A stretch of 64,000 nucleotides of DNA from Tubiluchus corallicola (GCA_030141605.1 JAQGDQ010000047.1:1-64000); one strand, 5' to 3'. Shown: positions 26,756 to 57,200, counted from the stretch's first letter. Numbers and translations are program-made. Notes: generated from the letters alone by a model not told the origin.

Positions 26756-28079
26756 TTACATTGAAATCCATTCTGGAGGATAGCGATCAATGATTCGCAT
26801 TCGTGAAGCAAACGCTGATCCAGGCACAGTTGAGTTTGCATCGTAAATCACGGTCCCTTTGCACAAGTAGCCACCCCACCAACCAAATGTTCCTACTGTC
26901 ATAATCACATGATGGCTATGAGCTAAAATACACATGTCAACTTTTGCCTCATTGTCATTCATAAAAATAATGTCCGGACCGCTCATGTTATCAGTACACC
27001 ATTGGAGATCATTACTTGTTACTAGAAATAGCACATTCTCATATCTTTCTCTAAAGTAACTCATTGCACGATTAATATAGTCAAAATTCGATATCCGTCT
27101 ACCATAGTTGTAAGATTTTGGATCACTGAAGTCTCCACGCCGCACATGTACACCTACTTTAATGTTATGTGCTCGAAGAGAAATGCCTCTTTCTTTAGCA
27201 GCCTTCTTGATTGAGCCTTGGGCCTGTGTAACAATTTCTGTTGAAAACTGAAACTGTTTGAGTATTTCTGTTCTCACATGATGAAAGTAGCGAAATGAGT
27301 GAAGGTTCATCTGGCCAACTGAGGTGTTCTGATTTGGTAACTTTTCCATAATTGTGTCATAAGTACAGCAATTTTGTGCCGTAACATATGTAAAATTACC
27401 CCTGTTAAAGTCGGCTTTTGTCAGATAAGTTGCAGACAAATTTGGAAATACTGTAACAATTTCGTCATCTCTCAATACACTTGGTCTCATGTGATTTGTA
27501 TTTGCAATACCATACATTGACGCATAACGAAATAGTTTATTTCCTAGTCCAACTTTGGAGCCTCCGTTTCCCACAACGAAGGCTTCTCGCATTTGTAACT
27601 TTTCCACAGATTGTGCAGCAGCCGAATTTGGGTGCCAATAATTATCATTTTGAAGTAGTTCATTAAGTGAATTAACATAGTTTGTAGTAGAATCTAGGAG
27701 ATTATTGCCAAACCAACAAATGGAAAGAATTCCCACTGTACCAGTAATCACCAGCAATGTGAATGGATTGAAAAAACGTGTAATACCTATGCAAAAAAGA
27801 ATAGTTCTAAAATTTGTGACGCAAATCGAGTAACCTGTTCCTTCTGTATCTACAGAGATTTCAGCAAGCAAGACACAAGTTTTATTTGGTTAGTTTTGTT
27901 TTATAGCAATGATCACCTGCTAGATTTATAGTCTTTATTCATAATAGCTGCACCTTGACCAGTTTTCTGATAAAAATTTGTTGCTTTACAGCTCTGTGAC
28001 AGTGTTTATAAAGTCTCCTGTATTTTTAACATTATATCATTTACTCACCTCTAGACCTGTATCTACCACGCAATCTCAT
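26756..28079 (-). CDS. Glycosyltransferase family 11, galactoside alpha-1,2-fucosyltransferase-like, about 374 aa
   Basis: Exon 28079-28049 (MRLRGRYRSR, donor gtgagt, phase 1) joins exon 27849-26756 in frame. N-terminal signal anchor, then GLGNKLFRYA, VGVHVRRGDF, FLVTSND, DMCILAHSHHVIMTVGTFGWWGGYL (GT11 motifs). The track ORF starts at an intronic TTG. Confidence 0.92.
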
Positions 28080-29807
28080 GTCAGCACATGCATTAAATTT
28101 TTAAAACGCACCTAAAGTTTTCAGGTAACTATAACAATCTTCAGCTTTTTTTGCTTAATTGTGCACTATTGATCTGCCATCAAGTACAGTAAACAGCACA
28201 GTCTTAAGCGTGATCAGGCATAATTCACAAATTTACATACTTGCAACCTTTGGATTTTTATATTGATGATCTGTTTGAAATAACAAACATACTGCAAGTA
28301 CTAATGCGCATGGCTAGTTTTATTTAGTTGATTATCCTATAACTTTAGAAAGGCATAAGGTTGTTGAAATACCATTAACCAAATTTACTTTATAACTTTG
28401 CAAATCATAATGCTTATATTTTAGTCCTGGATTCATAGCAGAAGTATAAGTCTTTGAGTCAACACTAAACTACAATAAATACTTAGGCAACCAAACTTTG
28501 GGTGCTTGTACTACCAGACAGCAAACAGATGACCTTAACTGAACTTTAACTGAATGGTCAATGGTCAAAGATCAATTAGAACTGAAAAACCAAGTATGGT
28601 TTGAGGTTAAATGTCATGTGCAATTCAAACCTATAAGGAGCTAGGCAACTAAATCTGGGTATTTTATACAACCAACGTGCTTAGACGCTGTGTACAAAAA
28701 ATAAACCTGAAGCCAACAAATCCAGAACATTTAAAAGCATTGCCAGAATGGTGCTGTCCAAAATAATTTCAACGAAAAGATTATGAGCCCCAAAATGAAA
28801 AGGTGAAAAAAGTTGCCTGGTGCACTCATTTCCAAATTGTTGGCTTAGTATGAAAAATAAAGAATGTAGGATATCCAGAATATATAATATAAATAATTTA
28901 GGTGTATATTGCAGCTTAGCGGTTTATATTTAAACAGTTTCTTGGTGTTAAGCAAAACAATTTCATTTCAAAGAATAAAACTTAAAGCCCCTCTTGATAC
29001 TAATTACAAGTAACCAACTATTTTGTTAATAAACTTAAATTGAACTAATTCAAACTGCTGTTTATGCTAACAATTTTCTTAGTAACGAATGGATTCAATT
29101 ATTACATAATTATAGTAAAGAAACCAAAAGGTTTGTCCAGAATTATATAATAGAAGTATGAACTGCGATATGGCTGAACTATACTAGTCAGTTTCTTGAG
29201 TGATTATTGGCTGAGGGTTCTTGCTGTTTTGCTGAGACGATTATTCCTCTTCGTCAAGGGCTGTAGAGTCATTCAATACTCTGGCTGACTTCCGGACCCT
29301 AATTACCAAATTTATAATGAGCAGTTGTGCTTAATAAAAGTCTAAGTTTAAGCAAATAGCACGTAGCACTGAAACATAGCATTATTTTTTTTCGTTTTCT
29401 CGGACGAACAACTTGGACCAGCATGTTTACTATATTTTGAACAAAATATGAGGTTACACTGTTCCTTTTGGTAGAATCCTTTCTGCTAACAACTCCAGTG
29501 TTAATGCGCTCTACATCAACAAGGGTATTTGTTGTGAGAGATTGGACTCGGCCGAGTTTATAGCCAAGAAAATCTCTTCACAACGCTTACATTAATTTAC
29601 ACGAAGCTCTAGGCTTAAACTATTAGTGGGATAACCTTATAATGCGCCACCAACAACTTAAACGCTTACGTGATGCTCATACGTTCGACGTTTTTACGAA
29701 ACAAAAATAAAGTTGTTTAAACTTTGCAAGTCCGTTATTTAGTAGTGGACATTACGCCTGAAGCACCATGAGGTGCGGGTGCATAAACGTTAATGTGAAA
29801 CGTAATA

Positions 29808-32800
29808 ATGCAAGAAGAAGACTTGTTAGACCGTTGTGACTTATCTGTCAATGCAAGGGCATTTTTTATAGACAAACTTCTTAATCATGTGCCTGACAAT
29901 AGCTGGTCTGAGAAGTCAGATGAATGCAACTATAGTATGAAAATAACGGAGAAGGTTAGTCCAGAAACTGGTAAGTTCTTAGTCAACTATAATGACATGC
30001 TTTGTTCATTCACTCTCTTTCCTCTCTCTCACTGTCTTTCTCTCTCTTTCTCTTTAGTTTTCTCTCTACCCTTTCCTACTTTCCGTCGTTCTCACATGTA
30101 CAACTTAGATGCTGAAAAGCTGTCTCGTTAAAGTGGGTTAAATTTTTACTGATTAACGTGTGTAATTAAAACGCCGTATATGAATGGTAGACATGAAGAT
30201 TCGCCTCTTGATTTGCAGACTTGCCTCTTGAGAAGTCTTTTTTAAAATTGCAGTTGACAATTTGTTAGAGGAGAATGAAAGCTCTTGCCATGTTATGCAC
30301 CTGCCTTTAGTTACGTGTATTCTACAAGGTAAAGGGTTATGGAATCAGTTTCATTCTCATGGGACAGAAATGATAGTAACAAAGTCAGGAAGGTATTGTT
30401 CACATTTGTCTCAACTTTTTATTGTCAAAGGTGATACAGCTTATAGTGCTGCTTCTTTTTATTAATAGATGTCGCCACCTTACGCGTAATATGCTATTAC
30501 CATCAATAAATATCAGTAAATGAATTTATGTAAGTAGTTTACAGCTTGAATGGATTCGAATCTTCAAAAGTAGGTTTCAATTTTATGGAACACAGTTGCT
30601 TACCTACTTTATAGGACAAATGTACATCCAAAAAAGGATTGCATTATATCTGCTAATAAAAACATCTTTGGTGTTATTCATGTATACTTATTCATTTGTA
30701 TTTTGTAGTTAATGCATTATTACTCAATTTGTTCTGCTGTTTCTTTTTTAATTTCAGTTTTCAATTACTTTTATAGGAGAATGTTTCCTACTTTGCGAGT
30801 TGCTTTCCAAGGCTTGCGAGCAGAAGAAAAGTACTCCGTGTTTCTAGAATTTTTGGCCATGGATAATCACAAGTACAGATTCTTTTATCATAGGTCAGAA
30901 TGGCTGAAGTCAGGAAAAGCAGAAGCAATGACTGAAACAAGGTAGATAATTAAATAATAATTAACTTAGTAACATGATGGAAAATAATTTAAATTTGCAT
31001 AAAAATATAGGTTATTTTATAGTGAATGAATGAAATGTTAAGTACAATAGCAGACCTGATGACTAACATTCACCACAGCTTGACACTGTTGACTATTATA
31101 TGACTACCATAATATTCTGTCTAGTTGCGTCTTAGTACATTTTTAAAGTTTCGTACGAAATTGTTTAATAATAACAGTAAACATGATCAAATTTTTTTAA
31201 CCTTGCTTCGTAGGTTAGTTCCTTACCCAGATTGTCCAATCAGTGGAGAAAGACTGGAAAAAACTGTTTTATCATTTGAAAAGGTCAAAATCTCTAACAA
31301 TGTGAACTGCAAACAAAACCACGTATGTTCTGTGTGCTTTGTAGTGCCCAGTTTTATATTCACAGGTTTTATGAAGACAAAGTTTCCTTTTCGCAGGTTG
31401 TTTTTCTGAACCTGTGACCTCACTTCCTTTACAATTCTACCGCATGGGTTTTGGTGCTTTTTTTTCTCTCGTAAATGTACGAGTTAGGGGACTAACATAG
31501 ATTTACATGAAATGTAGAGCATCAACGTGCAATTAAACTAATCACTAAGGATAAGGTACAATAACATGAGCATGATACAATGCTAGAGTAATATGGTACA
31601 GTTGATTCTTTCAGAAGTTGCACTTTGCTTTTAAGGCCCGTGTCACACAGAGCTGGACATAATCCGTAAGGCGCCTTACGCATTGATTAGTGGGCTACAG
31701 CGGTTTGCCTACCGTAAGGCGTTTGCCATAATCCGCAGTACATTCCTCACAAGCCGTTTTGGGCAGTTCATAAGGCGCCTTATCGTGAAATGAATTTGCT
31801 CATTAATTCTATGCTTGTCGCTAACGTGAAAATTAGTATAATTAAGCTTTTTTCTATACACAATTAATTTTGGTCATAAGAATTCATAACACTGACGTAA
31901 CCTAAACATTAAAAAGTATGTTTAACCCCTACTACACATATTTACGAATACTACATTACTAACAGTAAACATAAGAAAGGTATACTACATGCAGCCTGAT
32001 GCAGGAGGCTACCAGTCAATCGCATTATACAATGCGTGTTGACAATTTGTTATTCAGTAAAAAAGAAATCTGTTATTCTGTAGTGACTAATGTGTAACAG
32101 TATTTAAACAGTTGTTAATAAAATTTGAAATTAATACAAATATTTGACAATAAACTGTTCTGTCATATTAATGCATTATCTAGTCGTCTGTGCGTGAACA
32201 TGAAACAAACTGCCCATGAATTTCTAAGCGTACCGCGAGGCTTTTTTAGTATAACTGAACAAGCATTGTTTAATTATTTTTTCTGTTAGTAGATTGTGTA
32301 GTTTGTGATTATGTGTGGTTTCAGCTCACTGTACTAAGTTACTAGTGAGCATTGATATAGTAACTTATATAGTAACTATTAAACTATAGTATCTATTATA
32401 TTAAAATATAGTAGTTTCCTGCATTCCCAACAAAAGCGGATTATGGCAAAACGCCTTGCTAGTTACACAGAGCAAGGCGCATATCTCGGATTACGACATG
32501 CGCCTTACGGAAGATGGAAGACGCCTTATGGCTTACTCCTTCCGGCTTTTTCTGTGTGACGTTACGTTACAATGTCCTTTATGCCTTTCTTGCATCTGCA
32601 AGTTGTAGTGTTTCTTATATTCCCACCTACCTGAGCTCTCTCCACTGAATATGGAGTGGCTGCTTAATTTTGCTTCGCAGCAAGATTATATAAATAATAA
32701 TCACTGACAAAATAAACTTGAATAAAGGTTGAATAACAGTAAGCAGGCTTAGTTTACATCTCGCTCATTATGTTAAATATTAAGTAAATAGTTTTGCAAG

Positions 32801-34650
32801 TTTTTACTTGAGTCCCTAACATAAGACCCATTTTTAATTATTGACTTTCACAACTTTTGTGAAACATATATGTATTTTCATAAATTGTGTGCATTAAATG
32901 AAAACATGTTACTGATACTAATTATTGCATTTCTTATTTTTTGTAGGTTCAGCTTAAGTCTATGTATAAGTATCAACCGACAATACATCTAGTCTGTCAC
33001 AAAGATACACTGCATTGCAAGTTTTCCAGTGAGTTGAAAGGACTTGACCATCGAAGCTTCCAATTTCCTGAGACTCAGTTTATCGCTGTCACAGCATACC
33101 AAAATCAAATGGTAAATACAAAACAGCATACAGTCTAGCCTCGTTATCTCGCCCCTCATTATGCCGCCAAACTCGTTTCTCGCCATAGAAGAAAGTACCA
33201 GGATGGATTTCCTGCTTTAATATTTACCTCGTTAAGTCGCCACCCTCGCTTCTCGCCCTTGCCACGTCATGCTAGGATGAGTACTTATGTAAACTATATT
33301 CGTTATGTCGCCAAACAGACAAACTCAGAGGTGAATCGATCAATACATATGCCGCGTGTCGATCAATATAACCGTGGTATGTAGACAATGCTGCTGTACT
33401 CGATAGACAGACATAATTAATCTAGTGTGTGTCTCACCAGGATTAGATTAGGAGTGCTGTGGTTGGTTAACGGGCAGTTGCGATGAAGACGATGGCGCAT
33501 CTCATGTATCAAATGACCAGGCAGCAGCAGCTGTCGACACACTGATGCGATACTTTGAACAGACTAACAGAGTCACAAGCGACGATATTCAAGGATTGTG
33601 TTTGATTAAACGTCGTGTTGACTGCTTGCGTGTATCATCAATGAAACAGTCGTCTCTTCTGAATTATTTCAGTCGTCAGTAACTCATTTGTGAACATTTC
33701 TAAATCTTTTGCTAAGTTTATTGCATTTAAGTGTATACTCGAAAAAGGTTTTTTAAATAAAAAAGTAACATTCTAAGATTATTTTTATGACATTTTTTCA
33801 TTTCTGATTTAATGTTGATTGGTATCATAATGCGAAATATATTTTATATGTACATAGAGGAACACTATGTTAATCAACTATTATGTATATACATATAGAC
33901 TAACTTCGTTATATTCCCGTTATCTCGCCATACTCGCCTCTCGCCAAAAATTTGCCCTAGACGGACAGTGGCGAGATAACGAGGCTAGACTGTACATTTG
34001 TGCCAAATAAAAATTTACTACCAAAGACGTATTCTCTTGTACTACAATATTTAATACTATAGGCCTTTTATTTTATTCATAATGGAATTTATAAAACACA
34101 CTAAGGAACTCTCTGTGAATCAACACAAAATGAAAACGATATTTTGATTTTATAGTTGTCCAAGTCTTGTTAAAGTCAACAATAATATGTAAACTATTTT
34201 AAAAATTTGTTTTGGTTGCAGATAACAAAGCTGAAGATTGATAACAACCCATTTGCTAAAGGTTTTAGAGAACTATCAAGAAATTCTCGTACTGACAGTT
34301 ACATGCTACCGCTAAGGTAAATAATCTACTTAAGCAATTTAAGTAATTTTTTCAATTGGAATGGCCAATTCAATTTCATAAAGTAATATTTTAGAAATTA
34401 AGCTATATGTGCATATAACTGCAGTGTGATGTTAATGTCTGTTTTTTGTTTTAGGCGACAACATCACTCCTTTCTACCTCGTGTCATACCATTACCCATG
34501 ACAGAATACATGAAAGCACAGAGAAGTATGAGTACTTCAGTATTCAGTCAACAATGGCTTCTAAGGACAAATGTGTGCTACTCTTCTGACACTACTCACT
34601 ACACCAAACCCAGTCCTGTGCATCAGTACAATCCAAAGCTCAAGAACTAA
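29808..34650 (+). CDS. TBX20: Divergent T-box transcription factor, Tbx20/H15-like, 7 exons, 343 aa
   Basis: Exons 29808-29970, 30254-30392, 30777-30941, 31214-31322, 32947-33111, 34222-34316, 34455-34650; in phase. [75 protein letters not shown]; N-terminal eh1-like LSVNARAFFIDKLL. T-box is certain, Tbx20 orthology is tentative. Confidence 0.85.
31635..32566. mobile_element. Probable PIF/Harbinger-like non-autonomous element in T-box intron 4
   Basis: Ends taa|ggcccgtgtcacacag and ctgtgtgacgttacg|tta share an inverted GTCACACAG core; subterminal taaggcg/cgcctta repeats cluster at both ends around an AT-rich middle. Confidence 0.6.
33131..33992 (+). mobile_element. Non-autonomous pogo/Tigger-like element in T-box intron 5
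   Basis: Perfect 23-bp TIRs cagtctagcctcgttatctcgcc / ggcgagataacgaggctagactg, TA on both sides, subterminal tctcgcc repeats; remnant MKQSSLLNYFSRQ* at 33641-33682. Confidence 0.93.
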
Positions 34651-39500: not shown

Positions 39501-42500
39501 AGACACATTGACGACTTTTTATATTTAGTATCTTCATACTTTGATTGCCAAGCTATAATATAAAATTAAAAATAGCATCTTTTATCTTCTATCTAGGGCG
39601 TTTGGGGAATGAGAGTCATTTAGTGATTCCCTAGAGACTACATAATCCAAAGGCATCCCAGAAGACATCGCAAATTATGTTTAGGCTTTTTATATAATTA
39701 AATAATAGTACCTTGCTCAATCGACCTGAAAGGTCCTGAATGAAGGTTTAACAATAAATGAAAGTTACAAGCAGTAAATTAAACAGTGAAGAGAAATAAA
39801 GATAGTAAAAATATTGAGAAAAAGCATACTTTCCGAGATAGATTTCAGATCCAAAAGCGTTACAGTCATCTTTTCCTTTTGCTGGCTCTTTAGGTTCTTC
39901 CATTTGTTTCTTCATTTTCTGCTTGGCTGCGTGAAGCTCTTGATATACGTGAAATAATTTGGCATATTCCGGCTTCTTCTGTGCATATGCATAAAACTGA
40001 TCTGTGAAAATTGTTTATGGAAATCAATTAATGTCTTCAATGATCAGAAAAATGTAAATAAAAAAATACAGGACTGAAAGCTCACACAAGATTAATAAAA
40101 TTATTGTTTTGTACACATTAAAAAAACAAATATATACATTATAATGAATAGCAGAACAAACGATATTACAAGGAACACGCTGGATATTAAATGCCTATCA
40201 TGTGTCCTGCCTGAAATTCTTGAATATTTATTGTTACCCTATTTTGGTTTCACTTGAAGATCTGCACCTTAACTGGATGATAATAAATTAGTAAGAATTC
40301 GAACATCTCATGTAGCTCACACACTAGGAGATTAATAAATTATAGAATGTAACTCGTACTGCTATTCGTTATTTGCTATAGATTTCAACCCAGGAAATGT
40401 AGAAGCATTATATAAAAAACTGAGTATTCTATATTTAAGGAGGTAAACAAATTATACCATAAGTTATATAACCGAAGTTTTCTGTATCAACTTGACTGAA
40501 AAGTTTCTGCACTTGGTCATCTCCCATGTTAAAAGCTGTCAAGAGAATGTTTTTAAGTTTGCTCAGTGTTATGTGACCAGAACCCTCTGGGTCAAAAACC
40601 TATAAGAAAATTAAAGAGATAAATATCTCTCTTTTTTTATTATTATTATTATTATTATTATCACATTCAGTACAATATAAAGCACACAGTGACATCCAAA
40701 TTATTACATTTACAGTATTAAATTGTTATGTTTCATACACGATCGTTATCATAAAAGATTGTATTGTAGTGGGCTAGAGAAGCAAAGGCTTGTATAAGCC
40801 CACTGTCATGTGAACCTGATAAAAAAAATGGATGAGTGAACAAAAAAAGAACTGGGAGAAAGGTTAGATCACACAGGAAGGGTAGAAGGATGTGTTAGTG
40901 GAAATGGTAGAAAGAAAGATAATAGATTGCAGTATCTTTCAGTATCTTTATATCTTCTCATGCATTTACAACTCATACAGCTTCAAACATGTTGTAGATG
41001 AAAGGATTATCTTTTTTAATTGGTAAACAGATACTGTTGTACAAGTCACAAATTGGCAGGCAAATATGAAAGCTAGTATATATAAAACAGTTCACTAAAA
41101 TTGAAATCCACCATAACAGAAAAAACATGTAGAAAGTGCTGCCACATCTGGCAAAGAAGCACGTAGCACAGTGCAGCTGCTGCAATAACCGGATACCAAC
41201 AAAAGCAAAATTCTGCCGTGCTAGCTGGTGCTCGAGCTAGTGTTTACTAGTATTGCTTACAATGCGCTTCACTGAAAATCACAGAAAATTATCAAAAAGT
41301 TGAAATTGTCCATTATAACTTTGTATGTCCCTAGGTAATTACATAACTTTTTGCTGTTTTCGTGATACAATCATACAAGTGGCTTTCATTAATAATGTGC
41401 AGTTACATATTTTTCCAAGTAGGATGCGGCTCTAAAATTAACTTCTTCGGCAAACTCAGTTAAAGCGTTTCGATTTAACTAGGTATTAGGTTAAGTAGGA
41501 ATTGTTTGGCAGTGGTGAAACTTTATCACAACCAATGGAAATTGTTGAAAAGCCCCAGATTTAGAGAAGCACGTTATCAAGGTCTCAGGGTGTTATATGT
41601 GTACTACAACACTAGTTCGCACTTCCTCGACAGCACCATTTACTGCAGTGGCAAACTAAACTGCCACACCATATACCACGCCACAGCTGCACATACCAAG
41701 TTGGTATGTAGGTCCGCAGTACTTGATATGGTTGCACTCTGCAAGACTACACAAAGAAACGTCGAGCAAACACAACCGTCCCATGACGTGTCATACAGAG
41801 GGTTTCCAAACACACACATCTCTTTCAAATGATTTTCTAATACAAGAAATTACTAAATGCTTAATTTAATGCTTAATGCACACATTACACAAATTATTAT
41901 CTACTAATGAAATCAACCTCAAAACTAAAAATGGAGTGGTTTGTCCAAAAAATAAGAAGTTGCTTTGCACATAGAATGTCAAAACAACGAAAAAGTTGTA
42001 AATATGGCAGATCTTAAAGCTCTGAGTTTTGTGTCACATTGATACATATGAAAAGTTTTATTATAACCTTGCTCATTCACTTAAAAAGATAATTTTTAAT
42101 GATACCCTATTGATTGTTTATACCTTGAAGGCTGTTTGTATCGTTTCTTCTGTATTAGATGGCTGTGCAACAAGAGCTACACCGATTAGGTATTCTCTGA
42201 AATCTATTGTACCTGTCCCATTCTGAAATTACAAAATCAAACCTTTTACTACTGTTAAAGGTTTATACAAAACAGAATTTACAGATTAATTTCATAAAAT
42301 ACAGCTGTATCATAGAGCAACTGTATGAAAAAACTATATAGAACATTATAGAGTAAAAAGCGGTATGCAGAATGGTCTTAGAAGCCGCCTACAAGAACCA
42401 TTAAATAGTGTCTCAACATCTCGTGGAAACTGAATTTGATTTTGCAATTTTCCCAGTTCCTACGTTCATTAGGATTTACTTCACAACTCCTTCATTTAAA

Positions 42501-45500
42501 CAAGAAAACACATTTGCGATGCCAACAGACAATCATGGCATACCCTGTCATATAGCTCAAACAAGTCCTGCAATGCTTCTGAAACAGGTAATTCAAGATA
42601 TGCGGCAAATTTGTTGATGTCAATTCTGCCTTCACAGCTGTCTCTTACAATCTCTGAATAATGAGACAGAAGTTGCACTACTGTGTCTAAATTCATTCTG
42701 GAAAAAAGAAAATAAAGTAGTTATACAAACTTGTCTAGTTCTTTTCTTAGCATCATACCTAACAATTATGGTTCGGTGTCATCTTACCTAGCAATTAAAT
42801 AGAAAGTAAATACTTGCCTGTTGCAGAATAAGACTATTCACAGATGGTTTAAGTTTCAGTTACATTACTAAACAACAAATCGAGCAGATGTGCATACGTG
42901 TACAATTATCTTCTAACTAGAATAAACTAGTTTAAACATAGTTTATTTGGTTCAGATTAGACACTTTTAAAACTGATACATGAACTGGTATTAACTCAAC
43001 TTGAATGCATTAAGGAATTAGTACTGCTAACCATATACCCAAGTTTGGAATGAATTTTATTGTATTCTATCAATCCTATTTCGATTGGGAGATTCTTCTT
43101 CAAACATATGTCCATCAGTCGACAATCATCGTATGTGTGGTCTGTTATGGGAATTCCCAGACATCTGCAACACAAAGAGCAACTATAATAATCTACAGTA
43201 AAATCTGCTTAAAACAGAACTTGTTAACAGTCTTCATCTTACCCTATCAGATTCCAAGCGACAGGGCCGCTATGCATACAAGAATAATGACAGAACCTAT
43301 AATTCACTCACTCGTAGTTTCATTGCTATTTATTTAATCTGGTAGTGATACAAAAATGATTATGGCACTACGTAATTTCCTAAATGGTAAACACAAAACA
43401 TCCCTAATTAAACACAAACATACAACAAGAGCTACTATACTACACGTATAACACTTACTTGGCCATCACATCTCTGACATTATTTGCAAACAGCCTTGGA
43501 TTCTCTTTTTCTGCTGCACTAGGCTTATAAACAGGCAGAAACTGCAAAAGAAATACATTTGATTACATTAGTTGCAAAAGATTGAAGATAGTAATTTCAT
43601 GGTTTTGAACCAAGTTATTTGGTTTACTGAAAGAAAAGACAACCAAAATATTACAACTGAGCATTTACATAAAGGAAAGATATTTACACTTGCGTCATTA
43701 TAGTACAGTAAGTCATTACAGTAAGTGCATTATACTTACGCCAAATGCCAAGTCAGGTGTATTGTGATACTTATCGTATCATGAGGTCACTTATCGTGAT
43801 GGTCTATATCATTACAGCCGTAAACATTACACGAGCTCAGAATTTTGATATTTAGCAAACAAACAAACAAAATCAACGTCATGGAGTTTCTTACTTTCTC
43901 AATTTTTTTGTGCTAAACAAATTTCTGTTAGTTTGTTAATTAATATGTTAATGTGCTGAACAAATTACTGTGTATACTGAAACTTATTACAACTAGATAC
44001 TTGGCCATCAACACTAAAATATACTACATAATAATGTGACAATATGACAATACTGAAAAGTCCACTTTACCTCCACTTCAATTCTTGTATGAAACTGACA
44101 CAGGGTGTACCACAAGCAATGAAACCTAAAAGGAAAACATGATACTACGAACGTAATACAAAGATTAGCTGTTTTTATCAAAGTAATATGCCAGTTAAAT
44201 GCAGGGGCATAATGATCCAATTTAGGTTAACACTCAGCATTGAGGAATATGATAGAATTAAGTTAGATTAATTTGTGCAAGAGAACGTACCCATCTAAGC
44301 CTTCCCAAGTCCAAGTCACTGTATCTAATTTATTGGGATACCTAATTAAAACAGGTTGAACTGGAACTCCAGGATGGAAAGCACCTATTAACAAAAACGT
44401 ATATTGTACTTCATATGCAGGCACTGTTCCTTAATGCTCAAACTTGGCCACGTGCAGCAGGAATGCCATAATGTTGAATAATGTTGGCTACTATTCTTTT
44501 CTGTTGGTAAGTAACTTACTACAAAGATTCACCTCCTACTTCCGTGTATATATATATACAAGAAACAATTCACCTGATTTGAAAGTGATCAAGCATGATC
44601 GATTTGTGCATGTTCCTTCTGGAAAAATGGCGATCTGCGGCCAATTGTCTTTAGACACTGCTCTGCGCTTGATCTCCTTAATCGTGTTTGCCCGTGAGTT
44701 AGGGTCTTCCCGAGAAACCAACACGGGCTGGGTAAATTGCACAAGTGCTGTAATAATAAACAATGTGTCCTATTTCGTTAATATAAATTTATGTTAAGCT
44801 GCAATAAAGACATTTGATTCACAAATTGGCAATGGTGACATGCTAGAGATACTATGACTAAGAATCTGCAAAGCCAGTTGATCAAAATTTGCAACAAAAA
44901 TATATGAAACTCTAGAATTTGAATTGACTGCAGTTCCAGCAATACTAAACACCAATTTCGAAATACATTGCACAATTTTTATTATCTATATATCGAAATC
45001 CTATAATATTGTTTTAACACAAATTTTTTATTGTAATCATCATCATAAACGTCATCATTTACAATAAACTATTTTATAAATATTACTATGGGATTTCACA
45101 TAAGAACTGGTTGATTCTTGACAAAAAGAATTTTATAGTAATATAGTGCACAAGTTTTCTTTAAAGTTAAAAGTGTAAAAATATTACAAAATAAAGTTAT
45201 CCAAGCCAAAAATGATAGCAATAATAAAACATTTTTAACACTAACTGAAGACATAGTTAAAAACTCAATACTAGTGAATCTAGCAATAAGTCAAAATTTA
45301 TAATTAATAACAATGACAAATTTGATTCATTCATCCTAATAACATTTTTAAGAAAAACATGTGTCACAGGCAGTAACATAAACTTTAAAAATGAAATTAC
45401 AAAAAGCAATTTAAAATAAGTTTCAATTACTACGCATAACAAATAAACATGTTAAATGGTTAGTCAGGAATGCAAAATGTAGACAATGAGTAAAAGTGCA

Positions 45501-48500
45501 TGCAAAACAAAAACAAAAAACAAAAGAATGTGATAATGCAAAATTAATAACTTTTTAATTTTATCTTCATTATCTCCACCTGAAAACGAGTTCAACAGTG
45601 CTGAAAATCATAGTGAATTTTACTCATTACCAACACGATACATACAGAATTATCACAGAATGTCACAAATGCAGTAAAATCTGTACAGTTGCACAACGTC
45701 TTGCAGTAATTAACAATTTTAAAACGTAGAGAAATCTGCATGTGTCTTCAGTCAAACTCGACATACTTTATAAAATTATGCACTTAATATAAAAATATTA
45801 AGAAACTGTCTAACTGGAGTTTGATTAAATTCTTTACCATTGCAAAAAAACGCGTTTCTTGATTTGTCGAATACGAGAGCTCTACTAATTAGGCTTATCA
45901 TCTATATTAGGATTTTTCACTATTTGTTCTCAATAGGTCGGTTTTCGCAACCAAATACTCTTTTTTGGACAAATGGCTTCTTGGAACAATAGCACAATAC
46001 TCAAATGTTATCCAAATAGGTCACTAACACAGAAGCTAAACCCTAGCCTCTATCGTTAACCTCAACGATGGCAACTTTGTGGTAACTTATCAGTTTTTAG
46101 CTCTCTTTAATAAAAAAAGAGAAATAAGTTGCTAAAATATAAAAAGTGGGCATAAGTCACACTATTTTCAAACAAAAATTAAACCTACAATGTTAAATGG
46201 CCATTAAACAGTGCATGGTTGTGCCAATAGTAGCAGCTTTATGCAGCTAGAGCAGCAAATTTAGCCAAAGAATTCTGAGGCAAATTTGCTGGAATTGACT
46301 TTTTGAGAGGCCCAACTAAATACTCCTAAAGTCAAAATATTTTTCACATGGCAAGTATTTAGAAAAAATACACTTTAAACTGCTAAGTTTTATGTTGTGC
46401 AGCAGGAAAAAACAAACATGACATAGTGCATATTGTTAAAAGACGGAAATCATTTCAACAGTGACAAAATAATCATCAGAGTAGAACAAGACGATGAACA
46501 TTTTTTCAAGTAGACAAATTTTTCAGCAAACTGTCTATTAAGAGCTATGTACGTACTTCCCATTAAAGGCATGACTACATTCTCAGCACGTGACACAGAT
46601 GCAGGTAGCTGGCTAACGAAGCCAGCAACGGCATCAAAGAATGTGCTGTGTGGTCCAAAGACAAAGACAGGAGCTTCTGCTCTGTTGGCACGCTGACCAA
46701 TCACATGCACATAGTGGAAACCCATTGTAAAGAAACAGGCCCGCCCTAAGAATATCAATGGGTATCGCATAGCCCTAAGGTAAAAATGAAAGAAATCGAA
46801 TTTACAGTCATAAAAAGCAAATGGGCTGAAAGCAAAAATCAATATTAACATGTTTCCATGCCCAAACTAAATGATTCTCGTTCTGAAAGAACACAAGCAC
46901 CGGTTATAAATGAGACAAACAAATAGTATTCACTTTCACAATGCTATGCAGAGGCGATATACACCAGACCGTACGATGCCTCAGAAAACATTACTATGGT
47001 CGAATAATATAAACTGCAGGCATAAGGAGCTAGTATAGTCAGGAAAGTAAATTCCATCGCTTGGAAAGAAAATTTCACACTGGTCAAAATATCAATTAGG
47101 GGCTGCGATAAAAAATTTATAACTAAAAAAAATTGTTTAGTTAGTCAAAGATTACACAGTTTTTTGCATCTTTTACATTTTTTATATATTTTAATACAAA
47201 ATTATAAAACAAAAGCATTCAAAAAGAGTTGAAGTTTGAAAACAGTCATGTGCTATAAAAATAAGAAATGAAGAATTTTCTTGCTACAATAACAGAAATT
47301 TGAAGTTCTGCAGCTTTATGAAAAAATACATTTTTCTCTTTCAAACTTTTTTATACATACTTTGTGCATGGTGGGCAGCTTTTTTCAATTATAGCGTGAT
47401 TTTGTAGCATTTACACTTAATAAACCATCTTTACAAATAGCATGTGCACAGTGACAAGCATAAAGTGAATGAAATAATAAAGCAGCGTGATTAAGTTATA
47501 CAATTTTGAAGTTACAGCATTCAAGCAGCTTGTCTGCAAGCATAATAAAAGTGAACACTCGTCAGAAGTTACTTAGTAATTGTTAGTAGCAGGATAGTCT
47601 AATTCTAATGATGTAACATTCACCAGGAAAGCATGCAGTTGCATAATATCCTCTTCAGGCTTGTCACCTAGAAATACATACTTTTGAAAAACAGCACCTC
47701 GGTGGCCTCTATTTTAGCAACGACAGAACATAACCGAAGACAACAAATGGGAATGGCATCATAGTAACTAGTGTGAGGAGCAAGAACAATGATAGGCGCC
47801 TCCTTTGCAGATGCCGGCTGCCCCTTAATATGGTAACGATGAAATCCAGCACAGAAAAAAACTCCCCTTGACAGTGTAGTTATTAAGAAACGAGCAACAC
47901 TGGGGAAAAGAAAAGTGTTAGCAAGTACCATTTTTTATGCTGTTATTTACACAGACAGTGACGCACAAAAGGCAATATCATACACAGTACTGTGTGACAG
48001 TATTATTAAACAAAGGCCAACATATGTTTTCTAAAAGAAGCTTTTCAGTCTAACTCTTGAAAGAAGAAATTGCTTAAATTTGCTTAATGAGCAATTACTT
48101 CTAAGGAAACACAAAATACAAGAAAAACATTTTAAGCGTATTTTTGTTCAAAGCAGTATAGTATATTAATTAAATTGAAGCAATGATAACATCGAAGAAA
48201 ACAATTTATGGTTGATGTGTAACCTAGTCTAAGACAAGAATTCACTATAGTTCTCTACGGCTGTTTACTTTTATTAACCATAGAAGTTTGCAGATATTCA
48301 AGAATTTACAAAAAAGTTTTTGCTACACTGGTACTACAAATTCAATCATTAAATTTACAAAAAACTGAATTGTAAAAAATGATTTTAGTCCACGTTTTTA
48401 CCACGTTTTTTACTGGAATCTTCATTACGCATTAATTTTCAAAATTAATTGTAATTTACGTTTAAAATCTTAATAAAGAGCTATACTACAAACCTTCTCC

Positions 48501-49793
48501 AGCCTTTCATTGGTTTTAACTTGTCTTGTTCTGAACGACCCCATAGAGCAACAAAAGCTATCGGCCAGCATAAAAGTAATAGAAAACTGACAAGTAACAG
48601 GCGAACAGGAAATACAGTCACTGTCATCAATGCAATCTGTAGAAAAAATTATTTACAAATGAAAAAATGTATTTAACAATCGTTATTTTTCAGCCCTTAA
48701 AAAATAAAAATCACATTTCTTATCTTTTTATATTTTCTACTGCTCAAGTATAATGAAACATTAATGTGAGGGGTACAGTTGAGTGATCACGGTGTATGCT
48801 TAGTGACAAAAAAGAGGTATGTTCGCCTGAAAAATTGTTTCTTGGCAGTTTCATCTGACATACTTCCTATACTGGCTGTTTATCTCATTATTTACATATG
48901 TCATGTCATGACTAAGAACTCCTCTGCCGGTCACTACGGCCTCTCAAAGGATAATGAGATGGGTACTAGTCCTACCATAATTATCAATATGAGTAGTAGG
49001 GATGTCACGAATCTAAAATTACCAAACACGAATTTACACCGAATCTCATTTTATAATAATTTTCGAGACCAAATCAAATCCAAATTTCAGTTGAAATTTT
49101 CGAAACCGAACCGAATTTGAATCTCAATTTTTCAAATAGTTCCTTCAACTGAATCTTTTCTGCTGATGACTAACAATATAAAATGATCTGTTAATCAAAA
49201 ATTCCTTGGGGTGCTAGTTTCTTCAACTGAATCTTTTCTGCTGATGACTAACAATATAAAATGATCTGTTAATCAAAAAATTCCTTGGGGTGCTCTTACT
49301 TACACTCCATGAGTCCGTGTAACGTGCTCTGTCAAAGTAACATGAGAAATCTTGGCGTTTTTGTTGAAATTAGCAGTAAAATGGAAATGCGGTGCATACT
49401 TTCGAGTAGGATTTCATGAGTTGGACTGAAACGCTGAAACTAAATACGACATTGGCGCATTTCAATTAGAGCAAAATTATGAAAAAAGGCAGTGATTTCA
49501 TGATTTTGCCAAAAAATTTAAAGGTAAATAAGCATATAATGCTTTTGTAAAAAAACGCTCCAGAATCGCCTCTGCAGCTGAAGCTAAACCGGGTTTTTTA
49601 CGTCCCTGTCGAATTGGATTGGATCTAAGGTAATACAGAAATTCAGAGGCTTGAATCGAATCAAAGCTTCACAAATGTTTACCTTCAGTTTTTCCATAAA
49701 CGGCAACTCCAAATGATGAACAAACGGATTTTTAACTGTAGGCATCAGAAGGGAATTCTGCCGTGGCAAAACCATGTTTCTACGTTGAGCCAT
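36534..49793 (-). CDS. LPCAT2: Lysophosphatidylcholine acyltransferase (LPCAT1/2 type, EF-hands), 559 aa per isoform, with mutually exclusive exons 3a/3b
   Basis: Exons 49793-49683, 48636-48494, [47899-47682 or 46774-46557], 44747-44574, 44384-44291, 44125-44071, 43541-43459, 43164-43039, 42697-42544, 42222-42124, 40599-40458, 40001-39830, 38295-38210, 36556-36534. NPFVH, Hxxxx[19 protein letters not shown]-hands ([12 protein letters not shown]; DPEGSGHIT), C-terminal KIKVA (KxKxx ER retrieval). Last two exons less certain. Probably co-orthologous to LPCAT1/2/4. Confidence 0.93.
46557..46774 (-). CDS. LPCAT alternative exon 3b (218 nt, PHSTFFD)
   Basis: Acceptor ttcatttttaccttag, donor gtacgt; encodes (R)[72 protein letters not shown]. 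Confidence 0.92.
47682..47899 (-). CDS. LPCAT alternative exon 3a (218 nt, PHTSYYD)
   Basis: Acceptor gctaacacttttcttttccccag, donor gtatgt; encodes (S)[72 protein letters not shown]. Confidence 0.92.
49143..49294. repeat. Near-perfect 78-bp-period tandem duplication in LPCAT intron 1
   Basis: cttcaactgaatcttttctgctgatg...ccttggggtgct at 49143 and 49221. Confidence 0.93.
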
Positions 49794-50621
49794 TATCTGA
49801 CAACAACACTAACTTCAAATCCCATGTAATGGTCACGTCTTCCAGTGCAAATATCGTTGACTCAACTGACTTCAAATGCAGCTGGTCTGCTGTAACTTTC
49901 AGCTCTTCAGCATTACTGTACCTGTAACATAATGCCAAACACGTACAAGGAAGTACATTAAAAAACAACATTGACGTACAGGAAAGGAACTTAAATGATC
50001 CCAGCCTGTATCCCCAGTAATTATCTGTTGTGTAGTTTCCACACAACAGAACTAATAAAGGAAAATTTTAAATTTTCCTTCATTTCAATTATCCTTCAAA
50101 ATAATCAAACTGTTCTAAATAATATAATATGATATAAAAACAGCTCCAAATTAATGCATTATTCATTTAAAAAGTTAGTGTAATAAATAAAAAAGTCAAA
50201 GTAAAGACTTTTAGTTGCAAATTTTTGATTTGTGTTCAAATCACCATCAGTGATAAAAGTTTTGCATAAATGCCCAACGGTTTATGTATTCGTAAATTGA
50301 AAATTTGCAAATCATGTTTGATTCTTTTATTAATTATGCTGAAAATCACTTCAAAAACTGTGCTCATTCTGCTTCTTTGACAGAAGATTCCTTAAATTAC
50401 ATATTTCTTCATATTTATAAATAAAAGTATTTTCAAAATAATTAACAATACATGTGTGAATACGCCTGTGCTTGGCATCAAGTGTTTTAAATAAAATTTT
50501 AACCTTTTAACCTGTGACCTCGGTGTCAGGCATCAACCAATGCGTGTATGACTCACACCACTCAATTGTCTCTACAATTTACTGTGTTGCTCAACAGTTG
50601 AAGCCTTTATTTTTCTGTTAC

Positions 50622-51108
50622 CAGTGGTGGCTCATAATTAAAATTAGTGGGGGTAGTGCTTAGGAAGTTTTAGCCATTGTTTTAATACTGTGTAAAACAA
50701 AACAAACATATGTAATTTAATGTTGTAATCTTAATTGTAATTTTAAACAAACAAACAGGAAAATTTATGTATAAATTTGACAAATTCCTAAACCAAAAAA
50801 TTTTTTCTTATGAATAGCCTAAATTGCCACAGCAGTTCAAAAATATGCCGGTACACGGTTTTTAAGCACGTGACAATTGACAACAAACCGTGTGAGCAAC
50901 AGTAACTTCTCTACCGGCATGTGCACAACAGCTGAACACACCACAGTGCTAAGGCTGTGAAGCAAGCAGTACTAGCCTCACAAGCTCCCCTACAAGTGTA
51001 AAGAGAGAACTAAAGAAAAAAACTTATTACTGAGTGACAATATCGATAATATTGAGTGAAAATAGAGGGTGCTGCAGTTTCACAGTACCTATACATGAGC
51101 CACCACTG
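50622..51108. mobile_element. hAT-like MITE
   Basis: Perfect 14-bp TIRs cagtggtggctcat / atgagccaccactg; flanking 8-mers only partly match (tctgttac / tccctgac). Confidence 0.75.
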
Positions 51109-53531
51109 TCCCTGACTCCACCGAATTTCATATTTTGCCCCATAGTAGAGTCAGGGGTTTAGGCTAATCTAGGCTTAATTCTTATAGTTCAATTTGCCTC
51201 ATCCGAGACATTTCACTTGATATACTACAAGAAACTAAAACTAGAAGTTATCACTTTTCAAAGGTGACCTTGGAGTCATCCCAACCAATGTGGGATGGAC
51301 ATGCCACATTATCACTCATACCACTCATTATCTCGTCGAGACCTTTTATTCGATGTAGTATAACCTACTGTTGCTCGACAGTGGAAGCGTTTATGTCACT
51401 GAGCCCCATTTTCAATTTTTGTCCTCTAGCAATGTCAGGGATCAACCAGTCTAGGCTTAACTCATACCATTCAATTCACCTCACCAACCTACTGTGGCTT
51501 GAAACTGGAAACTCTCCTGTCCGGACTCCCCAATTTCGGTTTTCCCTCCAGCAAAGTCATGGGCTAACCAATCTGGCCATAACTCATAAATCGAACTTTC
51601 CATTTGATGCACTACAAGCCACTGCTGTTCGAAAATGAAAACATAATTTGTCTTCTCAGCACACCCAATTTTGGTTTTCCACCCAATTGTCAACCAATCT
51701 ACCTTATACAGTTTAAACTGTCGCATCAAAACTTTCCACTTGATATACTATAAGTTATTGTAAACTTCTCAATCATAGAAGCACTGCTGATCCTGGTTTT
51801 TCATTTGATATGGTACAAGCTACTGTTTCTTGGCAGTGGAAGGATAGGTGTCTCGCCTCGATTATGGTTTTTGCTCTCTACCGAAAATTTTTCCCTTTTA
51901 CAAATGGTCCATGTTCAGCCAAACACAATATTTCGATTCGACTTAGTCACATTAGCTCAGAGCTTAGTCAGATTAGCTCAAAAATTGTAGAAGGAGATCC
52001 AGTCTAACAAAAAGACATGAAACCCACCTGCTACCTTTGACCGGGGTGTCGGGACACGCGTAAACATAAATTACCCTACTTGTGGACTTTATCCTTTGAC
52101 TGGCTGTGAGTTTCATGACTATAGTCTTGCACATTTTTGAGTTATCAACAAAACAAAAAGGCACATAAATGAAAGACACAATGGGCATTTTCCCAGACCA
52201 AACTCCCAATTTTTTTTAAATTTTGGCCTGTAGAAAAAACGTTCTAGCAGCGTTCAGTGGGACTCTTGGAAGGAGATATATAGCTCTTTAGAAAGAGGAT
52301 AAACAGGGCTACACATTGATATGGGCTGCGTTTTAGGACGCTTCCTTCCTAAGGAGCTATGATAAGTTGATTGGAGGTTCCATTTTGCACGATTTTCGCT
52401 AGAAAAACTGCTGATGCAAAGCCATTGTTCTGACGTCATCCATTATACTCTGCTTATAACCTTGTAATTTTAATTCAGTAAAAGCTGCTGGCTTTGCGTT
52501 ATAAATGAGGACTATGTAGGATGTTCGCGTATTTTTGATTATAAGTGTATTTATACGCAAATTTTTTTGCAGGGCCTTGCTAGTTGCATAATTAATTTTA
52601 AAGGTTTCACTTGGCAGAGGGTTTAAATGTTCAAATACCAGCATTATTAATAAACAGTTAAGGACTTTGTAGTAAAACAAACAGACCTATACATCTCTTT
52701 GAAAATGTTTTGCTGAGCATGTAAGACAAATAAAAATCAAAACACTATGCGCAAAAATATCAGTGTAATAGCATTTTCTTTTCTGTCAATACATAGCGAT
52801 ATATATATATGTATATACATATATATACATATATATGAGAAAGAGAAAATTTATTTTAAAACCATTACACAATTTTCTGCATATACATATATATATTGTA
52901 GACATCAAATTATATTACTTTCCAGTTTGACGTATAATTTCTAGTAACCACTGTGAACGACAGCTTATCTTACTGCATCTTGATTTATAGTGATCTGCAA
53001 TATTATCAGTGTAAAAAAATTATTGATATCATCTAATAATACTACATTATTAAGATAACGGTTAGACTCTTCTAAACAGGCAAGCAACTTCGTACTTATT
53101 TCAGAAAAACCAGAAAGAAAAGATAGAGCACTTGTCGTTAACACAATACTATCGTGAGATTATAGGTCGTACTGCCACATACGTAAGGACAATCGTCAAA
53201 AAAGGTTAAATTACTCTCCATAGTGAATCATATATTTTCTAATCTCTTCAATGTAAATTAACTATTAAACTTTTAAATGCTTTTTAAAAATGGATAACGC
53301 AAAATAAAGGCAGAAAAATTTAACTGCAGCAGTCTAACGGTATAAATATGGTACTTTTCTCAAATTTTCTAATTTCCGCCTGGATTTCCTGCCTTTCCCG
53401 AAAATTCCACCAACAATATGAAACGTCTTCGATTGTTGCAAAATCGGCAAAGTTGAATCAAAGAGTGTAAAGTGGTTGCATATTACATTTTGTACTAGCA
53501 CATGGACTATCCAGAGTACAAGTGGCCAGAG

Positions 53532-54117: not shown

Positions 54118-54247
54118 CAGCTAGACAAATTCAGGAAGATAAATTTTTACCAATTGTTTGTCGTCAAATTGTCTCTGTAGTTGACTATCTACTAACTAGG
54201 TATCGGTCAAATACTAGAAATAGTTTTTCTCGATCGACATTACCGGT

Positions 54248-57200
54248 ATGGCATTAAAAGTATGGGCAGCTGATCGTGAAAGTGATACTGATAGCATTAA
54301 TAGTAGGCTTATCGCTAGTTACCTGCCCGGAGAAGACAAACATCGCAATGCTAAAGTTCTTCTGTCAGAACATGCACTGGAACTTGAAGAACTAGATAAA
54401 AACCTGTTTAGGTAGGTCTTTGATTGATTCGATACACTCGTCAATGTCACTCATCAAATGTAAATGACATTCGAACTGCCATGCTTGGCCCAGGCCCGAA
54501 CATCGATGCACTTCTTGCACTGTAGATGTTTTCATAGGGAATAGGCGATTCCAAATGAAGGAAAATTGGATACAGCCATTTGGGCATCAGTGCCATCACA
54601 GGCAGTGCTGCACATAGTGACTGCTTCTAGTTTAGGTGGTTCCTTTTTAATGCGTGCCCAGATTGCCCAAATCAAAAATATCGCTGAAACAAGTGCTCCA
54701 ATAGAAAAGAGGCATCCTTTGTCTACACACTGATGTAAAGAAAATAGCAAACTACCTCATACCTAAAAAAATACAAATTTTTTTAAAAGTTGGTGTCATT
54801 TTACCAAAATATTTTCTTTTTTGAGTTTGCAAAAACCAATAATTTTTATCTACCACTGTACGGCTTACCATTGAAACATGCAGACATTGTAGACAGTTAT
54901 TATAGCCATGTAGCTGCTATAGATAGGCTTTAAATATAACGATTTTTAAAATATGTGTTCTTTATGCATGTGTGTATATGAGTATGCTGGTCCATAGTGC
55001 AACAGAACTGAACTTGTTTTATTCTCTGTTCTAGAATTATGATGTTGTGAGATGTAAAAACAAACATTTTACGTTGTGCCTGAGGGCATGAGTTGAAGAT
55101 ATGAGTAATCTGTCATTTCTAAAAAATCTGTTCACTAATTATGAACCGAGCTAAAGTTACTAAAAATGTTGTTCATTTCAGAAGTCCATCTGGAATTTTA
55201 TGGAAGCCATATGGTGCCCGCTTCATATATGGTGGACAAGTGATAGGACAAGCTTTAGTTGCAGCATATAAAAGTGTTGAACATGAATTTCACATACATA
55301 GTGTTCACAGTTACTTTATCTTAGGAGGTAAGAGAGTGCAAGTTATTCCCAAGTTATGCTACATATCAACCACTACTCTTTTCTTCTGTGCTCCTCTGGA
55401 AGGTATCGTAACAAATTGTGGTTTTGATTTTATGTCTTATGCTGATGATACGCAACTTTATCTTATTTGCAAAAATGCTTTTTTGTCACAAATGAATGTA
55501 GAAAACTGTGTAAATGACATCCACTCTTACATGGCAGCCAACAAACCAATTTTAAATGACCGCAAAACTGAACTAAATCACATTCATTCAAAATTTTGTG
55601 AGTTTTATTGATTAGAAATCCAAGGATTTGGGTATTTATTTTGATGAGGACGGCATTCCTAATAGTCATGTTTCACAAATTGTCAGAAAAGCATCTTATG
55701 CTCTGTAACATATTGGTCGCATTTGTAATGTGCTTAGCCGCCACTACAGCTGAATCTCTAGTCCATGCATTTATTACATCTCATTTAGACTATTGAAATA
55801 ATCTTTTACATGACCTTCAACCAAATTATCTTACAAACTGTCTACACACAGTACATGGCAGCATGACTCAATACGTGAACTCAGCCTTATAAACAAATCA
55901 CACCAGTTCTTTGGAACTTGCGTCAATTGTCTTTTTACAAGCACGCTGAATTCAAACTTCTAGTATTTACTTACAAAATTTTGGACAGTGTGCAATATAT
56001 TTGTCTGATCTTTTATTTCTGCATAGTGCTGCTCATGATGGCGTTGCAAGTCATATCCGCACAGCAGCTGATCCTTCACATTTAATAGAACCTACATAGA
56101 ACCTAAGCAAAAAACATAAGGCTGTCGTGCCTTTGCAATTTTCGCTCTATGATTGTGAAATCATTTATCATTAACTGTGCATCAATTGCCATCATTACGA
56201 AATTTTAAAAAGCACTTTAAAGCATACCTGTTTAAGCAGCATATGGATCATAGCAATATCTGTGCATTACAGTAGAGTATGCTGGTACAATTTTATGATT
56301 TTGGTTGAATGTAAGATAATTTGGTTGAAGGTCATGTAAAAGATCATTGCAATAGTTTAAATGAGACATAATAAATGCATGGACTAGAGATTCAGCTGTA
56401 GTGGCGGCTAAGCATATTTTTAAAATAATTATTTTTTTATTAACTGTATTTGTAATTGTAAATTATAACGGACTTTTTTATTGTAAAGCACATCGAGATC
56501 ACTTGATGTGATGTGCTATACAAATAATAATAATAATTATTATTATTATTATTATTATCATCATCATTATTACTGTTGGAAAGTATTTTGGCATCCAATG
56601 CTAAAAACAAGGGGTTGATAAAGCATGGAAAATAATTATGGCTTATTATTATCACCAGAAGCAAAATAAATGGCGACAAATCAGATGCTGCATGTTTCAA
56701 GAAATCAGTTAGACAAGGGGTCCCCAAACTTTTTAGACCATTGACCCCTTCATTGAATCCTTGATTTCTAATTGACCCCATGTACAAAAAATAAATATTA
56801 ATAATAATTAAGTAGAGAGTGCAGTTTCCATACACAGTAGTGTGAGGAACTGCATACCAAACTCTGCTTTCCATATACATAAGTAAGGAAAACTACATAC
56901 CAAGCCCTGAAAAACTGTTGTTCTAAATCCCCTCCCCTGTGAATATATCTCATGAAATATAGGGAAACAAAAACGAAAAACTGTTTACTGTTGTTTTGGA
57001 AATCATAATGTACAAAATATTGAATATAATGTCGGAATTCGACATAAAAATGTTCGAACTTATTGAAATATGTTAGAGAGCATTTGGTAAGAGGGAGATG
57101 GGTAATATCATAGTTATGACATATGCTCCAAAGGACAGCAAACAAATTTGCTTCTCTGTTTATTTCCCAGTATTTCATGCGACATATTCATTTATCATGA

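Follow-up and report, generated by a model that had tools for sequence, protein, structure and literature searches.

The window, that is, the whole stretch of 64,000 nucleotides that was analysed, contains a predicted lysophospholipid acyltransferase (LPCAT) gene of the AGPAT family, with 12 exons on the minus strand between 39.7 and 49.8 kb. The third exon is present in two copies, 3a and 3b, and the exon map is as follows.

Exon 1, 49683..49793, minus strand: 111 nt; ATG at 49793; PRQxS motif resembling the site of Ser34 phosphorylation in LPCAT2
Exon 2, 48494..48636, minus strand: 143 nt; first membrane helix
Exon 3a, 47682..47899, minus strand: 218 nt; apparently derived, LPCAT1-type copy; second membrane helix, HxxxxD, A-K-x-E strand
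Catalytic His codon of exon 3a, 47775-47773, minus strand
Exon 3b, 46557..46774, minus strand: 218 nt; apparently ancestral-type copy, as in LPCAT2/4; HxxxxD, S-R-x-E-N strand, P-x-x-G
Catalytic His codon of exon 3b, 46650-46648, minus strand
Exon 4, 44574..44747, minus strand: 174 nt; AGPAT motifs 2-3 (FPEGT); PF01553, E 1.2e-6
Exon 5, 44291..44384, minus strand: 94 nt; motif 4
Exon 6, 44071..44125, minus strand: 55 nt
Exon 7, 43459..43541, minus strand: 83 nt
Exon 8, 43039..43164, minus strand: 126 nt
Exon 9, 42544..42697, minus strand: 154 nt; EF-hand region
Exon 10, 42124..42222, minus strand: 99 nt; EF-hand
Exon 11, 40458..40599, minus strand: 142 nt; EF-hand
Exon 12, 39748..40001, minus strand: open as far as the stop at 39748; putative 3' end

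On the basis of its motifs, modelled fold and homologues, the gene is classed as an AGPAT-family LPCAT. HxxxxD is present in both 3a and 3b, the PF01553 match on exon 4 is above the curated cut-off, and the best homologues of the encoded protein are named LPCATs. A PlsC-like fold with a two-helix N-terminal anchor was observed in models of two oyster isoforms, which were used as stand-ins, and the EF-hand exons are present in the window itself. In these models, exon 3 runs from the second membrane helix through two strands and the HxxxxD loop and helix to the strand that follows, and both isoforms give the same local structure. The best PDB match of the 3b model was PlsC (5KYM; Foldseek, E 7.7e-7), followed by calmodulin-like chains, and no LPCAT structure was found in this PDB search. 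With exon 3 removed, the window protein falls among the spiralians, nearest to that of the annelid Owenia, with no starred support. The intron between exons 9 and 10 (42543-42223) is absent from one contig of run X2, which is RNA by guess only; the contigs of this run do not cover 43000-50000, so they are uninformative either way about exon 3.

The following features were also observed in the window.

54224-55330, plus strand: acyl-CoA thioesterase exons (PF13622), divergent from and about 4.5 kb upstream of the LPCAT gene
About 29800-33000, plus strand: T-box gene exons, with PF00907 at 30232-30462 and 30709-30942
26759-27889, minus strand: single-exon glycosyltransferase family 11 gene (PF01531)
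21221-25214, plus strand: CCCH zinc-finger protein exons, with weak Pfam hits
7848-11261, plus strand: decayed LTR-type retroelement, with fragments of reverse transcriptase and integrase in several frames
40648-41311, 50608-51271 and 51936-52599: very high-copy repeats, as judged by the contig depth of run X1

The thioesterase and the neighbouring LPCAT both use acyl-CoA. The zinc-finger gene is presumably ZC3H15-like.

Two tandem copies of exon 3

Exons 3a and 3b are of the same length, are bounded by AG and GT, and have identical phases. Their peptides share 32% identity over 72 columns without gaps, the ungapped nucleotide identity is 45%, and both retain HxxxxD. The peptide motifs quoted for the two copies by the initial annotation are present in the window. 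When 4236 six-frame segments from the window and four other loci were scanned with a profile, exactly two copies of exon 3 were found in the window. Contigs of run X1, which is DNA-like and may have been the origin of the window, span 46493-46975 and 47542-48122, covering both exons with 0 differences from the window.

The reading frame is open through exons 2-3a-4 and through exons 2-3b-4. Inclusion of both copies (2-3a-3b-4) leads to a stop at codon 126 of 251, and skipping of both (2-4) to a stop at codon 63 of 105 (zero-based index), so that only the inclusion of exactly one copy yields a full protein. The two exons have the attributes of mutually exclusive tandem exons, being adjacent homologues of like length and phase, with splice sites and open frames, and they are likely to be spliced in one at a time. 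As double inclusion causes frame loss, transcripts carrying both copies would probably be cleared by nonsense-mediated decay.

Steric exclusion was rejected as a mechanism, as the intron between 3a and 3b is 907 nt long and all the sites are GT-AG. RNA structures were also considered, and two crossing stems predicted in the 3a-3b intron perhaps aid exclusivity. Both are presented as leads only.

47436..47681, minus strand: predicted RNA stem, the 3a donor region 47681-47652 pairing with 47465-47436
46920..47561, minus strand: predicted RNA stem, 47561-47532 pairing with 46949-46920 and crossing the 3a-donor stem

The free energies of the two stems are -29.5 and -26.3 kcal/mol, and one of them masks the 3a donor. 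The stronger stem was reached by 0 of 50 shuffles, and the stem arms are not repeated elsewhere in the window; a stem of similar strength was present in one of nine control introns of the same gene. When the 3a-3b introns of other loci were compared with shuffles, that of L008 beat 15 of 15 and that of L059 2 of 2, but that of L063 only 3 of 15. It is possible, on these predictions, that the stems control exon choice. Two other candidates were discarded: a stem flanking 3a (48257-48276 with 47543-47562), as 20 of 20 shuffles equalled the best pairing of the introns concerned, and a pairing across 3b, which was equalled by 8 of 8. A strong stem (-28.8 kcal/mol) is also predicted at 41151-41750, in the intron between exons 10 and 11.

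The exon pair among animals, and exon 3 of the vertebrate paralogues

Relatives of the gene were collected by an exon-4 search; with the 3a peptide alone as query, nothing was found (8 candidates). The exon-4 search returned 1283 relatives, and two types of exon 3 recurred among the best 120. Thirteen named same-species isoform pairs were checked within these 120, from Lingula, Octopus, Saccostrea and ten insects, and in every pair the two isoforms differed in a single block of 70-77 aa only. The pair was found in brachiopod, mollusc and arthropod genes, which upholds the earlier claim that the exon duplication is ancient and contradicts the opposite case, in which no other bilaterian locus would have the pair. 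Two copies of exon 3 were also present in 4 of 80 metagenome loci, with 3a before 3b each time, as in the window; the peptides of L063 and L065 are the same, so the four represent three distinct loci. The donor phase of exon 3 was common to every locus inspected. Both copies were contained in 7 of the 333 proteins with an exon-3 hit, none of the seven was from a vertebrate, and 3a clearly preceded 3b in six. At locus L041, for which the best match is the coral protein P0170, the exon 1-3 region is uninterrupted and has a single copy.

At locus L003 (5819-7929), the only exon 3 of the LPCAT gene, between exons 2 and 4, is of the 3b type; this invertebrate copy of the gene appears to have lost 3a independently. 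That 3b can occur alone in a gene copy, and that the window copies are known here from genomic sequence alone, would suit an explanation in which one of the window copies is dead or unused and alternative splicing does not occur in this species. This is very improbable, as both copies are full length, have intact splice sites and HxxxxD, and are placed among their orthologues; furthermore, both Apis cerana isoforms (P0023 and P0062) have Logan assemblies among their listed sources. We favour the use of both window exons, one per transcript.

Invertebrate deuterostomes were also sought. A Trichoplax-based search aimed at amphioxus and echinoderms gave 22 hits with neither group among them, and among 30 representatives whose names were looked up there was no sequence named as amphioxus, echinoderm, hemichordate, tunicate or other invertebrate deuterostome. 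Two unnamed groups of sequences, P0131/P0148/P0159 (mostly 3a-type) and P0127/P0135/P0178 (on the 3b side, and sister to the vertebrates), may be invertebrate deuterostomes. A mosaic exon 3, with a 3a-like front and a 3b-like S/T-R-x-E tail, was observed in P0161 (Clastoptera) and in the unnamed P0131; exon conversion or a third exon type are possible explanations.

The initial annotation had likened 3a to vertebrate LPCAT1 and 3b to LPCAT2 and LPCAT4. Vertebrate sequences were obtained from a profile search of 50% representatives and from look-ups, with no human sequence among them. The named rows were mouse LPCAT1 and hagfish LPCAT1-like, opossum and reedfish LPCAT4, and LPCAT2 of frog, caecilian, skink, sawshark and tarpon; nine more vertebrate-type rows were unnamed and were assigned by tree. 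Outgroup counts refer to the five named rows only (Pocillopora, Sanderia, two of Trichoplax, and Amoebidium). With type profiles trained on seven protostome pairs only, all six LPCAT1 rows were of the 3a type (+13.7 to +22.4 bits) and all seven LPCAT2 rows were of the 3b type (-2.6 to -17.0 bits). The signal for LPCAT4 was weak, with three of five rows leaning to 3b and two near zero, and it was no more 3b-like than that of the named outgroups (-7.0 to +1.5 bits). P0148 and P0159 were scored as 3a-type, and P0127, P0135 and P0178 were on the 3b side. When the type labels were swapped, the true labelling ranked second of 64, beaten only by the swap of a divergent moth pair.

A tree of exon 3 was built under LG+C20 from 47 rows and 72 columns, 23 of the 70 aligned rows having been removed as partial, redundant or unplaced. 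Eleven protostome 3a exons and four LPCAT1 rows, including that of hagfish, formed a single branch (98/95, with the bootstrap not fully settled), which was still recovered (96/93) when the motif columns (exon positions 61, 62 and 65) were removed. When the exon was divided into three parts, each part of all six LPCAT1 rows leaned to 3a. No supported grouping was obtained for the 3b, LPCAT2, LPCAT4 and non-bilaterian exons. AU tests were run after the tree had been seen, yet on the criteria that the initial annotation had laid down. They rejected a clade of window 3a plus 3b (p-AU 0.036) and a single clade of all vertebrate exon 3 sequences (p-AU 0.034). The likeness of 3a to LPCAT1 is therefore borne out; that of 3b holds for LPCAT2 by profile, but it is weak for LPCAT4 and has no supported clade behind it.

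A duplication specific to the lineage of this animal is hardly credible. No point was found in its favour; it is contradicted by the cross-phylum pairs and by the rejection of the window clade, a grouping that the initial annotation had named as one that would tell against its reading, and the best identity of each window copy to its counterpart in other phyla is 54-56%, compared with 32% to its neighbour. It might also be argued that the duplication occurred in protostomes only and that vertebrate LPCAT1 converged on 3a-like residues through similar substrate demands. The alignment is short (72 columns), the rejection of vertebrate exon-3 monophyly is narrow, the V-A-K strand is also present in some protist-like unnamed proteins, and a deuterostome pair was not seen among the sequences retrieved. 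However, the link between 3a and LPCAT1 survives the removal of the motif columns, its signal is distributed over all three exon parts, and the rank of the true labelling also speaks for it, so that convergence is judged quite improbable and common descent of the 3a type is preferred.

The strand past the catalytic helix is informative on the polarity of the two types. It reads S-[RK]-x-E-N in all five named outgroups (R in four) and S-R-x-E-[NT] in LPCAT2 and LPCAT4, A-K in 13 of 13 protostome 3a exons and [MTA]-K in six of six LPCAT1 rows. Position 62 is K in every one of these 3a and LPCAT1 rows, and R in 7/7 LPCAT2, 5/5 LPCAT4, 9/13 protostome 3b and 4/5 named outgroup rows. As the 3b-type strand is present both in the outgroups and in LPCAT2/4, we infer that 3b represents the ancestral state of the exon, shared with cnidarians, Trichoplax and Amoebidium, and that 3a is the diverged copy. 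On these sequences, the resemblance of 3b to LPCAT2/4 is mostly shared ancestry, which would account for the missing 3b-LPCAT2/4 clade, and the only derived signal is the link between 3a and LPCAT1.

A tree of the protein without exon 3 (37 rows, 382 columns) gave a different result. LPCAT1, LPCAT2 and LPCAT4 formed one branch (96/91), with the unnamed P0127 as its sister, and hagfish grouped with LPCAT1 (97/87). Placement of LPCAT1 with the protostomes was narrowly rejected on these columns (p-AU 0.048, in a test run after the tree had been seen). The exon tree and this rest-of-protein tree are in conflict exactly at LPCAT1, which is the outcome that the initial annotation had proposed to look for. 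The order within the vertebrate branch varied: IQ-TREE favoured LPCAT1 with LPCAT4 (96/93), FastTree gave LPCAT1 with LPCAT2 (99), and LPCAT2 with LPCAT4 was not rejected (p 0.089). If LPCAT1 and LPCAT4 are paired, two losses of 3a are required. The vertebrate clade was not recovered from the 243 catalytic columns alone, after removal of the EF-hand region, and with more unnamed rows added, hagfish left LPCAT1 and joined P0131/P0148/P0159 (SH 96, quick tree).

The motif LPRQNS is encoded in exon 1 (49752-49769, minus strand), 113 residues ahead of the catalytic His. The corresponding offset of Ser34 in tetrapod-type LPCAT2 rows is 112, and Ser34 is a phosphorylation site of LPCAT2 (PMC4140912). 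LPCAT2 and the majority of spiralian rows have a PRQxS-type site, which is missing from the LPCAT1 and LPCAT4 rows checked; by this distribution it appears to be a second ancestral feature retained by a single paralogue.

These results are best explained by two tandem copies of exon 3, likely spliced in one at a time, that likely arose once in the bilaterian ancestor and were likely divided later, with the 3a type in LPCAT1 and the 3b type in LPCAT2 and LPCAT4; we regard this account as a whole as probable. Exon 3 would have been duplicated in the bilaterian stem, with 3b the original, and the vertebrate paralogues would then have sorted the splice isoforms, LPCAT1 keeping 3a and LPCAT2/4 the 3b type. 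Since 3a is in LPCAT1 and a non-3a exon is in LPCAT2/4, on a shared backbone, the vertebrate ancestor most simply had both. A pre-duplication gene with both exons is seen in protostomes, and for the vertebrate ancestor it is implied by the trees. The earlier claim that each vertebrate paralogue kept one exon is supported for LPCAT1, in the exon tree and in the full tree of the remainder, but the 3b link on which its other half depended appears to be mostly ancestral rather than derived.

We infer that the exons were sorted at the vertebrate duplications. The same sorting might be older, if a split into 3a-only and 3b-only genes took place in the deuterostome or chordate stem, which would make LPCAT1 and LPCAT2/4 deep paralogues and not products of vertebrate genome duplication. 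P0148 and P0159, which are unnamed, non-protostome-like and 3a-type, draw the hagfish LPCAT1-like sequence away from the vertebrates, P0127, P0135 and P0178, which are related to one another, have 3b-side scores, and the catalytic-only tree has no vertebrate clade. However, the full rest-of-protein tree unites the three paralogues and places hagfish with LPCAT1, and hagfish shares with jawed-vertebrate LPCAT1 a one-residue deletion in exon 3 that P0148 does not have. The older split is therefore considered unlikely. We also take the human LPCAT1, LPCAT2 and LPCAT4 genes to be located in paralogous regions, with IRX, SLC6A2/3 and SLC12A genes as neighbours, which counts against deep paralogues. 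A literature search returned nothing on LPCAT synteny or ohnology, and there was no match in one supplement of PMC4504502.

The catalytic site and comparison with known systems

Mouse LPCAT2 requires His146 and Asp151, its Pro173-x-x-Gly176 forms a needed kink, and the substitutions A115L and A115W alter its acyl-CoA preference (Hamano et al., bioRxiv 10.1101/2020.10.31.363515). Arg166 has been modelled on the phosphate of lyso-PAF (review PMC8753187). Offsets from the catalytic His in four tetrapod-type LPCAT2 rows reproduce Ser34, Arg166, Pro173 and Gly176, and on the same offsets, taken from these tetrapod rows and not from mouse LPCAT2, Ala115 maps to exon position 10. Position 10 is G in 11 of the 12 protostome 3b exons with a residue there, is larger than G in 13 of 13 protostome 3a exons (S in window 3a), and is M in six of six LPCAT1 rows. 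At the Arg166 equivalent, window 3b has R and window 3a has K. Because the residues equivalent to Ala115 and Arg166 change, the choice of exon probably retunes the acyl pocket and the acceptor site, that is, the choice of substrate, while the rest of the enzyme and the EF-hands would stay constant.

It might even be that the substrate difference between mammalian LPCAT1 (saturated, surfactant-type PC) and LPCAT2/4 resides largely on this one exon, and that the bilaterian ancestor already chose between its two forms by splicing. In most invertebrates, one gene would then continue to supply either active site, the LPCAT1-like or the LPCAT2/4-like, with competing RNA stems as a possible switch, and exchange of exon 3 alone would exchange the specificity. 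This proposal is tentative, and we hold it as possible rather than probable. LPCAT1 is involved in lung surfactant and is amplified in cancers, while LPCAT2 makes inflammatory platelet-activating factor and is a drug target (PMC8753187). The proposed history provides an origin for the split among three human lipid-remodelling enzymes, LPCAT1, LPCAT2 and LPCAT4, and as each invertebrate isoform pair differs by one naturally exchanged exon in an otherwise constant protein, the determinants of LPCAT1 versus LPCAT2 selectivity become directly testable.

The window gene has the same AGPAT motifs, two N-terminal helices, EF-hand region and PlsC-like fold as vertebrate LPCAT1 (LPLAT8), LPCAT2 (LPLAT9) and LPCAT4 (LPLAT10). 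It differs in being one gene with two choices of exon 3, whereas the vertebrates have three genes with one each, and in that its LPCAT2-like N-terminal PRQxS site is combined with a catalytic exon of the LPCAT1 type or of the LPCAT2/4 type. In its adjacent homologous exons of the same phase, the loss of frame and the intron stems, it resembles the mutually exclusive exons with competing RNA structures treated in the portions of PMC6071210 and PMC9013439 consulted; unlike those, the window stems are predicted from one genome, with a similar stem in a control intron.

The separation of splice isoforms after gene duplication is already known as a process, and RefSeq already annotates LPCAT isoforms. 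Eleven such events were described by Abascal et al. (2015, PMC4494069), among them CALU, U2AF1, MARVELD3, CACNA1C/1D and FYN, and CACNA1F/1S and FYN-derived kinases were added by Martinez Gomez et al. (2022, PMC9741552). LPCAT is absent from the main texts of both papers and from one supplement of the second, and a literature search, with most subscription journals outside its scope, returned no paper on LPCAT exon duplication. As in the published events, ancestral mutually exclusive homologous exons appear to have been distributed one per paralogue, with a conflict between the exon tree and the gene tree. Unlike the cases in those main texts, the LPCAT exon encodes an enzyme's catalytic motif, and it would date at least to the protostome-deuterostome split. 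The two screens, as their main texts present them, start from pairs surviving in human genes, whereas no retrieved vertebrate protein has the LPCAT pair, so that its ancestral state is visible only in invertebrates. As no human gene is expected to retain the pair, LPCAT would expose a class of isoform separation that is invisible to human-anchored screens.
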